The notes under the pieces were generated by a model. It saw nothing but the letters and a program-made list of their open reading frames with translations. It made no database searches and was not told the DNA's origin. The translations under genes were made by a program, and so were the position numbers. 19,285 nt of DNA from a virus (taxonomy: Duplodnaviria; Heunggongvirae; Uroviricota; Caudoviricetes). The first letter of the stretch is position 1. Every line of letters starts with the position of its first letter. This document shows positions 7,015 to 8,536 of the stretch, in pieces. The stretch lies in the IMG/VR virus record IMGVR_UViG_2639762844_000001, positions 1 through 19,285 of that record; one strand, 5' to 3'.

Positions 7015-7034
7015 CTGTTCATATCCTCATAGAT

Positions 7035-7060
7035 AAAAAATCGCCCTCACACTGGAGGGC
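7035..7060 (-). terminator. Intrinsic terminator on the leftward transcript (stem GCCCTC/GAGGGC, loop ACACTG, then U6), upstream of ea10; lambda tL2-like
   Basis: Read directly: 7043-7060 hairpin, A6 on the plus strand at 7035-7040 gives a U-tract on the minus-strand RNA. In lambda the equivalent terminators are overridden by N, which is absent here. Confidence 0.5.
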
Positions 7061-7226
7061 AAAGAAGATTTCCAATAATCAGAACAAGTCGGCTCCTGTT
7101 TAGTTACGAGCGACATTGCTCCGTGTATTCACTCGTTGGAATGAATACACAGTGTGAAGTGGTTTACTGAATTTGGCCACCTGAACAGAGGTGATATGCT
7201 CACCTCAGAACAACACAGGTGCCATA

Positions 7227-7529
7227 ATGAAAAAAAGAAATTTCAGCGCAGAGTTTAAACGCGAATCCGCTCAACTGGTCGTTGACCAGAATTACACCGT
7301 GGCAGATGCAGCCAGCGCTATGGATGTCGGCCTTTCCACAATGACGCGATGGGTGAAACAATTACGTGATGAGCGGCAGGGAAAAACACCAAAAGCCTCC
7401 CCCATTACCCCGGAACAAATTGAAATCCGTGAGCTCAGGAAAAAGCTACAACGTATTGAAATGGAAAATGAAATATTAAAAAAGGCTACCGCGCTCTTGA
7501 TGTCAGACTCCCTGAACAGTTCTCGATAA
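7227..7529 (+). CDS. orfA: IS911 OrfA (HTH/leucine-zipper transposition regulator), 100 aa
   Basis: [49 protein letters not shown]... recognised as IS911 OrfA; the ORF track begins at an upstream in-frame GTG/ATG but the canonical start is the MKKRNF Met. Confidence 0.9.
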
Positions 7530-8374
7530 TCGGGAAACTCAGGGCGCGTTATCCTGTGGCCACTCTCTGCCATGTGTTCGGGGTCCATCGCAGCAGCTAC
7601 AAATACTGGAAAAACCGTCCTGAAAAGCCAGACGGCAGACGGGCTGTATTACGCAGCCAGGTACTTGAACTGCATGGCATCAGCCACGGCTCTGCCGGAG
7701 CAAGAAGCATCGCCACAATGGCAACCCAGAGAGGCTACCAGATGGGGCGCTGGCTTGCTGGCAGACTCATGAAAGAGCTGGGGCTGGTCAGCTGTCAGCA
7801 GCCGACTTACCGGTATAAACGTGGTGGTCATGAACATGTTGCTATCCCTAACTACCTTGAACGGCAGTTCGCCGTGACCGAGCCAAATCAGGTGTGGTGC
7901 GGTGATGTGACCTATATCTGGACGGGTAAGCGCTGGGCGTACCTCGCCGTTGTTCTCGACCTGTTCGCAAGAAAACCAGTGGGCTGGGCCATGTCGTTCT
8001 CGCCGGACAGCAGGCTTACCATGAAAGCACTGGAAATGGCATGGGAAACCCGTGGTAAGCCCGTCGGGGTGATGTTCCACAGCGATCAAGGCAGTCATTA
8101 TACGAGCAGGCAGTTCCGGCAGTTACTGTGGAGATACCGGATCAGGCAGAGTATGAGTCGGCGTGGAAACTGCTGGGATAACAGCCCAATGGAGCGCTTC
8201 TTCAGGAGTCTGAAGAACGAATGGGTGCCGGCGACGGGCTATGTAAGCTTCAGCGATGCAGCTCACGCAATAACGGACTATATCGTTGGATATTACAGCG
8301 CACTAAGACCGCACGAATATAATGGTGGGTTACCACCAAACGAATCGGAAAATCGATACTGGAAAAAACTCTAA
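7227..8374 (+). CDS. orfAB: IS911 OrfAB transposase (DDE), produced by -1 programmed frameshift from orfA into orfB
   Basis: orfB frame (DDE integrase-like: ...WCGDVTYIW..., ...[10 protein letters not shown]..., ...[12 protein letters not shown]...) is -1 relative to orfA and overlaps its 3' end; slippery A AAA AAG at 7478-7484. Confidence 0.85.
7478..7484 (+). promoter_or_regulatory. IS911 -1 ribosomal frameshift slippery heptamer A AAA AAG
   Basis: Heptamer in orfA zero frame (codons TTA AAA AAG) at the orfA/orfB overlap. Confidence 0.7.
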
Positions 8375-8404
8375 CTCGGTGGCCAGTTTTTGTTGACCAC
8401 TTCA

Positions 8405-8536
8405 ATCACTGCCGAGCTGGCGAACGGTCAGGTCTATGTACTGTCGTCTGCCTGGCTGCACGGCGAAGCGAACCATAATGCCGAAGAAGGCACGGTTGAT
8501 CTTGAGTTCCACGGTGAAGAAGGGGATTACCAGTAA
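8405..8536 (+). pseudogene. 3' fragment (last 43 codons) of a phage tail-tube-like gene truncated by IS911
   Basis: Open frame runs from the IS911 boundary (ITAELANGQVYVLSSAWLHGEANHNAEEGTVDLEFHGEEGDYQ*) with stop overlapping the next start (TAATG); no start codon, so it is a truncated remnant. Confidence 0.5.

Follow-up and report, generated by a model that had tools for sequence, protein, structure and literature searches.

A duplication-free IS911-group insertion sequence at a deletion junction in a decayed KplE1-type prophage of Escherichia coli

The window, as the whole 19,285-bp stretch of DNA analysed here is called, carried a complete IS911-group insertion sequence (IS) that joined a lambda-like early block directly to the remnant of a tail gene. 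This arrangement was best explained by a stepwise loss of prophage DNA, the last step of which would have been an adjacent deletion made by the IS transposase; a probability of roughly 0.55 is given to this reading. Comparison with near-identical prophages supported a junction apparently formed by an IS-associated deletion inside one prophage. Overall, the case is one of ordinary stepwise IS-driven prophage decay. The phenomenon is already known: both the missing target site duplication as a scar of adjacent deletion or of recombination between IS copies, and the decay of prophages driven by ISs, are textbook matter and well documented. The value of the case lies mainly in annotation, as it accounts for the defect of the prophage and defines precisely which interval was lost. 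Seen together with its relatives, the window neatly illustrates, in nature, how an IS erodes a prophage step by step and how a missing duplication can be the scar of a rearrangement.

A single prophage at argW

From left to right, the window displayed a cscB-like MFS transporter gene, an attachment core, torI, the early genes exo-bet-gam-kil-cIII-ea10, the IS, an SfV-like tail/baseplate module and intS. The cscB-like gene (1-1248) adjoins the prophage end. Between it and torI was found a KplE1-type attachment core (1689-1704, minus strand) matching CTGCAGGGGACACCAT at 15 of 16 positions, with zero matches expected by chance. The KplE1-type excisionase gene torI (1778-1978, minus strand) received its coordinates by transfer from the 99.96 %-identical locus of strain 23-AB02114 (L006), where it is annotated under this name, while the integrase gene intS (18128-19285, minus strand), at the argW end, is annotated in the 100 %-identical loci of 23-AB02114 and Ec40743 (L006 and L010). 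The tRNA-Arg gene argW itself is located outside the window and was encountered directly beyond intS in 100 %-identical relatives. Both the sequence of the 16-nt core and the location of integrase and excisionase at opposite prophage ends are described for KplE1 in PMC2951348.

On these grounds, both flanks of the IS were assigned to one defective E. coli prophage of the KplE1/CPS-53 type, lodged between the csc sucrose genes and argW. Because both flanks belong to one prophage, the IS marks an internal deletion and not the joint of two phages, and the window is best annotated as one decayed KplE1-type prophage instead of two phage fragments. With the KplE1 (CPS-53) of K-12 it shares integration at argW, intS and torI at opposite ends, the 16-nt core (15/16) and the condition of a decayed remnant. 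K-12 KplE1, however, is a 10.2-kb remnant in which other genes have survived, whereas the prophage of the window extends over ~17.6 kb from attachment core to intS and, unlike its K-12 counterpart, keeps the Red/kil/cIII/ea10 block as well as a complete SfV-like baseplate/tail module. It resembles the Shigella serotype-converting phages SfV, SfII and SfI in the genes of its SfV/Mu-like contractile tail (97.2-97.7 % identity) and lambda in the early-left genes (98.0 %), but differs from these phages by its IntS/TorI pair at argW and by the deletion of the genome centre. Phages with the same pairing of early and tail modules (about 97.5 % identity) occur in other E. coli (H38-H42).

The left flank (window 3491-7154) aligned to lambda 30380-34044. 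Its last intact gene is ea10 (6646-7014, minus strand; Pfam DUF2528, E=1e-46), which corresponds to lambda ea10 (33536-33904) and closes the lambda-like leftward early block. Beyond it, only a remnant of the ea10-ral spacer (7015-7154) was left, ending at the equivalent of lambda 34044. Since ral occupies 34087-34287 in lambda, the block stops 140 bp past the ea10 start codon and 42 bp short of the ral stop codon, in agreement with the preliminary description, made from the sequence alone, which had placed its end after ea10 and about 40 bp before ral. A strong hairpin resembling a terminator (7041-7062, minus strand), reading GCCCTCCAGTGTGAGGGC and followed by a T run, was noticed immediately upstream of ea10 on the early-left strand.

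The right flank opens with the 3' remnant of an SfV-type tail tube gene (8405-8536, plus strand), composed of 43 codons and a stop and missing the first 225 nt of the gene. It represents the C-terminal 43 of the 118 residues of the tube protein found in relatives, or positions 76-115 of the 117 of Pfam Tail_tube, and its match to SfV orf12 (9007-9363) begins at nucleotide 9232. These three lines of evidence confirmed the earlier identification of this flank as the last 43 codons of a tail-tube-like gene. The tail assembly chaperone gene (8536-8805, plus strand; Pfam Phage_TAC_7) is the first in the retained tail module to be intact; the module continues to about 16767, and the identity to SfII, SfI and SfV given above was observed over window 8405-16148. 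At the tail-fibre position, the window displayed a continuous ORF of 307 codons (15844-16767). In relatives that are ~100 % identical over this block, PGAP called a truncated stfP pseudogene and a separate 'glycine-rich domain' protein; the tail-fibre gene may thus be rearranged or mis-annotated.

With regard to function, the gene content suggests that the prophage would be unable to form particles and would have lost the pL/N, immunity and replication functions. The retained Red genes, kil and cIII are probably without promoter or antitermination because pL and N were deleted. Like the complete baseplate/tail module, from which the native promoters and regulators also appear to be gone, they are probably carried silently. 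A hybrid outward promoter at the junction of the right IS end was also considered: no sigma-70-like site was predicted within 6900-9000, and no promoter arising at either junction was found. As int, xis and att are kept, the prophage may still excise in the manner of K-12 KplE1.

The insertion sequence and its missing duplication

The IS occupies positions 7155-8404 (1250 bp) and, like all features listed here, is read on the plus strand. An inverted-repeat scan recovered terminal inverted repeats at 7155-7181 and 8378-8404, the 27-nt arms being 78 % complementary, within a left repeat (IRL, 7155-7190) and a right repeat (IRR, 8369-8404) of 36 bp each. The ends read TGAAGTGGTTTACTGAATTTGGCCACC... 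and ...GGTGGCCAGTTTTTGTTGACCACTTCA and are of the 5'-TG...CA-3' type. The first 60 nt are identical to the left end of K-12 IS911A, and over its first 762 bp the element displayed 96.7 % identity to the K-12 remnant annotated under that name, the left end being identical. At the other extremity, the last 36 bp matched the IS911 IRR oligonucleotide IRRb at 36 of 36 positions and primer O5 at 25 of 25 (adjacent 14 bp), both sequences being taken from PMC2909936; IRR is thus the published one of IS911, to which the transposase binds.

The coding content consisted of orfA (7227-7529, 100 aa) and of an orfB frame (7556-8374) that includes the catalytic DDE/rve part and is read as OrfAB past the frameshift. 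A -1 shift at the programmed frameshift heptamer A AAA AAG (7478-7484) yields an OrfAB of 382 aa ending at 8374, in which Pfam recognized an N-terminal HTH_Tnp_1 domain (E=1e-14) and a C-terminal rve/DDE core (E=2e-31). No match to an Rfam frameshift element or other RNA element was obtained within 6900-8700. A complete IS911 of 1250 bp with both inverted repeats, orfA/orfB and the A AAA AAG site had been recognized beforehand, and the repeat scan, the IRR identity and the 382-aa OrfAB bore this out. By its length and ends, its IRR, its orfA/orfB fusion and the 3-bp duplication generated on simple insertion, the element is a member of the IS911 group of family IS3. Identical copies are labelled 'IS3-like element ISEc52 family transposase', not IS911, by RefSeq/PGAP. 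ISEc52 is closely related to IS911, an element of Shigella dysenteriae that belongs to the IS3 group of the family. With respect to these two names, the comparison made here involved the IRR oligonucleotide and the K-12 IS911A remnant rather than the IS911 type sequence; the other conclusions are independent of the choice.

The triplets flanking the exact IS ends are GTG on the left (7152-7154) and ATC on the right (8405-8407), both read on the plus strand. They differ, as had been described, and no direct repeat of 3 or 4 bp was present at the flanks; identical 3-bp repeats at the exact ends had been named beforehand as evidence that would speak against a deletion. Simple insertions of the same IS (0-1 nt differences), on the other hand, carried duplications of 3 bp: AAT in 100181 (L003 6485-6487 and 7738-7740), GTC in the tape-measure gene of FDAARGOS_1293 (L002) and AGG upstream of essD in Ec40743 (L010). 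Because such near-identical plain insertions are duplicated, the absence of a duplication in the window is a genuine scar rather than a trait of this IS; it reflects a rearrangement and does not count against family membership.

The simple insertion in 100181 concerned another lambdoid prophage, in whose ea10-ral spacer an identical IS had inserted independently 12 bp to the left of the left junction of the window (window 7140-7154). This spacer may be a local insertion hot spot or preferred landing site. An IR-like target at the left junction was considered as an explanation for two insertions 12 bp apart and was rejected: when IRL and IRR were aligned locally with 120 bp from intact lambda, the best score was 14.0 for a shuffle mean of 14.3, and 326 of 500 shuffles scored as well.

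Near-identical relatives and the order of losses

Relatives were sought among 5,426 complete E. coli genomes, none of which covered at least 80 % of the window. The right junction of the window was absent from this set, as was an IS-free version of it; a related prophage displaying the same junction without any IS, which the preliminary description had named as the other observation that would weaken its reading, was therefore not encountered there. The right junction was equally absent from two large contig collections that were scanned (genome_contigs and metagenome_contigs), and the left junction was not present in the first of these. Most E. coli genomes contain more than one copy of the IS. 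The uniqueness of the right junction and this multiplicity of copies are compatible with an assembly artefact, in which a contig would have been joined across the repeated 1250-bp IS, linking the flanks of two copies where no real deletion exists. Against this, several finished genomes carrying prophages of this lineage displayed equivalent duplication-free junctions, and the artefact would itself presuppose an IS within the tube gene that was seen nowhere else. It is considered very improbable.

The most informative relative was JNE170426. Over window 1-8404, which includes the left junction and the whole IS, it differed by one mismatch (at 4974); window 8405-19285 aligned to it free of mismatches, with a single indel of about 27 nt. 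In this genome, however, 14,071 bp separate the right end of the IS from the position of the tube breakpoint. The first part of this interval comprises a 5'-truncated ybgA-like gene, an HTH pseudogene, essD, rrrD, rzpD, bor/iss and an HNH gene; the remainder comprises terS, terL and the genes for portal, protease, major capsid protein, connector/closure proteins, tail terminator and sheath, followed by the first 225 nt of the tube gene. The IS of JNE170426 is likewise devoid of a duplication (GTG | GGT), and its right end abuts nucleotide 66 of the ybgA-like late-region gene. Thus, ral, sieB, N, the immunity and replication regions, nin and Q are gone in JNE170426 while the late genes are still present.

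Further relatives displayed the same IS at other positions. In 23-AB02114 (L006 8235-9484) the junctions differ: about 188 bp more were lost on the IRL side, into ea10, and 293 bp on the IRR side, leaving 13,777 bp between IRR and the tube breakpoint. Ec40743 retains ral and the full ybgA-like gene and harbors two copies (L010 953-2122 and 5833-7082), one of them inverted, next to ral and without duplication, the other being the fresh AGG insertion mentioned above. In THO-006 (L007 3665-4914) and FDAARGOS_1255 (L008 4273-5522), copies without a duplication were located in ral and sieB of a related prophage. A single ancestral insertion in sieB was considered for the two; no triplet is common to their flanks, and the intact reference does not contain their sieB type. 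Closely related prophages thus display the same IS, with 0-1 nt differences, at several distinct duplication-free junctions. No difference at all separated the IS of the window from the copies in JNE170426, 23-AB02114, 100181 and Ec40743. Ec40743, PM22 and LR-51 were reported as 100.0 % identical to window 8405-19285 (equal maximal bit scores). Judging from these identities, the prophage copies of JNE170426, Ec40743, PM22, LR-51 and the window diverged very recently.

When projected on the Ec40743 backbone (L010), the breakpoints on the IRR side fell at 3677 (JNE170426), 3970 (23-AB02114) and 19001 (window), and those on the IRL side at 430 (window and JNE170426) and 242 (23-AB02114). These nested end points all flank an identical IS. 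The features expected of adjacent deletions were therefore found together: the lost interval is present in relatives beside the same IS end, the breakpoint coincides exactly with the IS terminus, and the end points form a nested series.

The preliminary description had proposed an IS-mediated deletion, or a recombination between two IS copies, that removed everything in one event. Its first part was upheld, as relatives carry the missing DNA beside the IS; its second part was not, on account of the intermediate found in JNE170426. Because the IS of this strain already lacks a duplication, and because ral through Q are gone while the late genes remain, at least two deletions are called for, not one. 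Read most economically, the IRR side underwent two or more deletions in succession, of which the second, 14,071 bp long, would have given the window; the direction of descent from a JNE-like form to the window is here drawn from parsimony, not from a strain phylogeny. A single deletion from an intact prophage, removing ral, N, immunity, replication, lysis, head and sheath genes at once, is compatible with the final structure taken alone, and nested deletions do erase their own history. JNE170426, only 1 nt apart in 8.4 kb and with the same IS, orientation and left junction, nevertheless retains the late genes, and had the two arisen independently, one and the same base pair would have had to be hit twice by the same IS. 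Moreover, the reciprocal IRR-GTG-ral junction, expected of an insertion at this base without deletion, was found in no genome, the sole match being the offset insertion of 100181. A single deletion is accordingly regarded as improbable.

Mechanism of the 14-kb deletion

In the classical 'adjacent deletion', the IS is retained, its untouched junction is retained as well and no duplication is left. Applied to the window, an earlier lineage would have held the IS in the same orientation and at exactly the same left junction, as the comparison showed for JNE170426, with IRR abutting nucleotide 66 of the ybgA-like gene and the region from ral to Q already missing. A further 14,071 bp would then have been lost, beginning exactly at the outermost nucleotide of IRR and ending within the tail tube gene. 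This last deletion would have been made by the IS itself, its transposase linking IRR to another site on the molecule that carries it, with loss of the interval between them.

The main alternative for this step is homologous recombination, in which a second, directly oriented IS would have inserted into the tube gene with an ATC duplication, followed by RecA-dependent loss of the 14 kb together with one IS. This gives exactly the observed product: the same end structure is expected from the transposase and from RecA acting on two direct copies, and since the compared copies differ by 0-1 nt, no chimeric IS could reveal a recombination. Several observations speak for such a route. These lineages have an active IS, matched at up to 25 places per genome, and the two-copy route is plausible because the prophage of Ec40743 holds two copies at once, one of them fresh (AGG). 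Recombination between IS copies is also a frequent cause of missing duplications according to PMC11708052. On the other side, the predicted two-copy intermediate, recognizable by a tube-ATC-IRL junction where an IS sits in the tube gene at the breakpoint, occurred in 0 of the 5,426 complete E. coli genomes, an absence that is only suggestive with respect to mechanism. The 188-bp and 293-bp deletions in 23-AB02114 would each need a new insertion of the same orientation a few hundred bp away, which is less economical. Recombination between two IS copies is, in sum, possible, though not the probable course.

A transposase-made adjacent deletion was therefore favoured over recombination between IS copies, even if the data by themselves cannot separate the two. 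It is favoured because the end points are nested around a fixed IS and include the very short losses of 188 and 293 bp, because the two-copy intermediate is absent from the genomes searched, and because IS150 offers a precedent in long-term evolution lines (PMC11708052). In these Lenski lines, IS150, also of family IS3, gave rise to 14 deletions ranging in size from 14 bp to 48.9 kb; none displayed a duplication, and all were classed as adjacent (PMC11708052). Like them, the deletion of the window starts at one IS terminus, leaves the IS and the other junction intact, lacks a duplication and, with 14 kb, is within the range of sizes. In contrast to the IS150 lines, the window stems from a natural isolate, and order and mechanism were inferred from relatives instead of being experimentally tracked.

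One argument against adjacent deletion comes from the transposition pathway. The normal route of IS911 is copy-out-paste-in, which by itself produces no deletion of the donor flank. If the nested deletions were nevertheless made by the transposase, an IS using this route would routinely erode its own neighbourhood in the wild, in the absence of any second copy. As a tentative proposal, held with less confidence than the mechanism of the last step, the window, JNE170426, 23-AB02114 and Ec40743 might together represent natural one-ended deletions, 188 bp, 293 bp and 14 kb long and nested around a single resident IS of the IS911 group, with the ea10-ral spacer as a possible preferred landing site.

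Next to the IS of JNE170426, PGAP annotated a 909-nt ORF as 'YbgA family protein' (L001 7736-8644), the start of which is located inside the right end of the IS. This ORF is a fusion made by the deletion junction and does not display the native start of the gene, which is intact in Ec40743 with a length of 960 nt.
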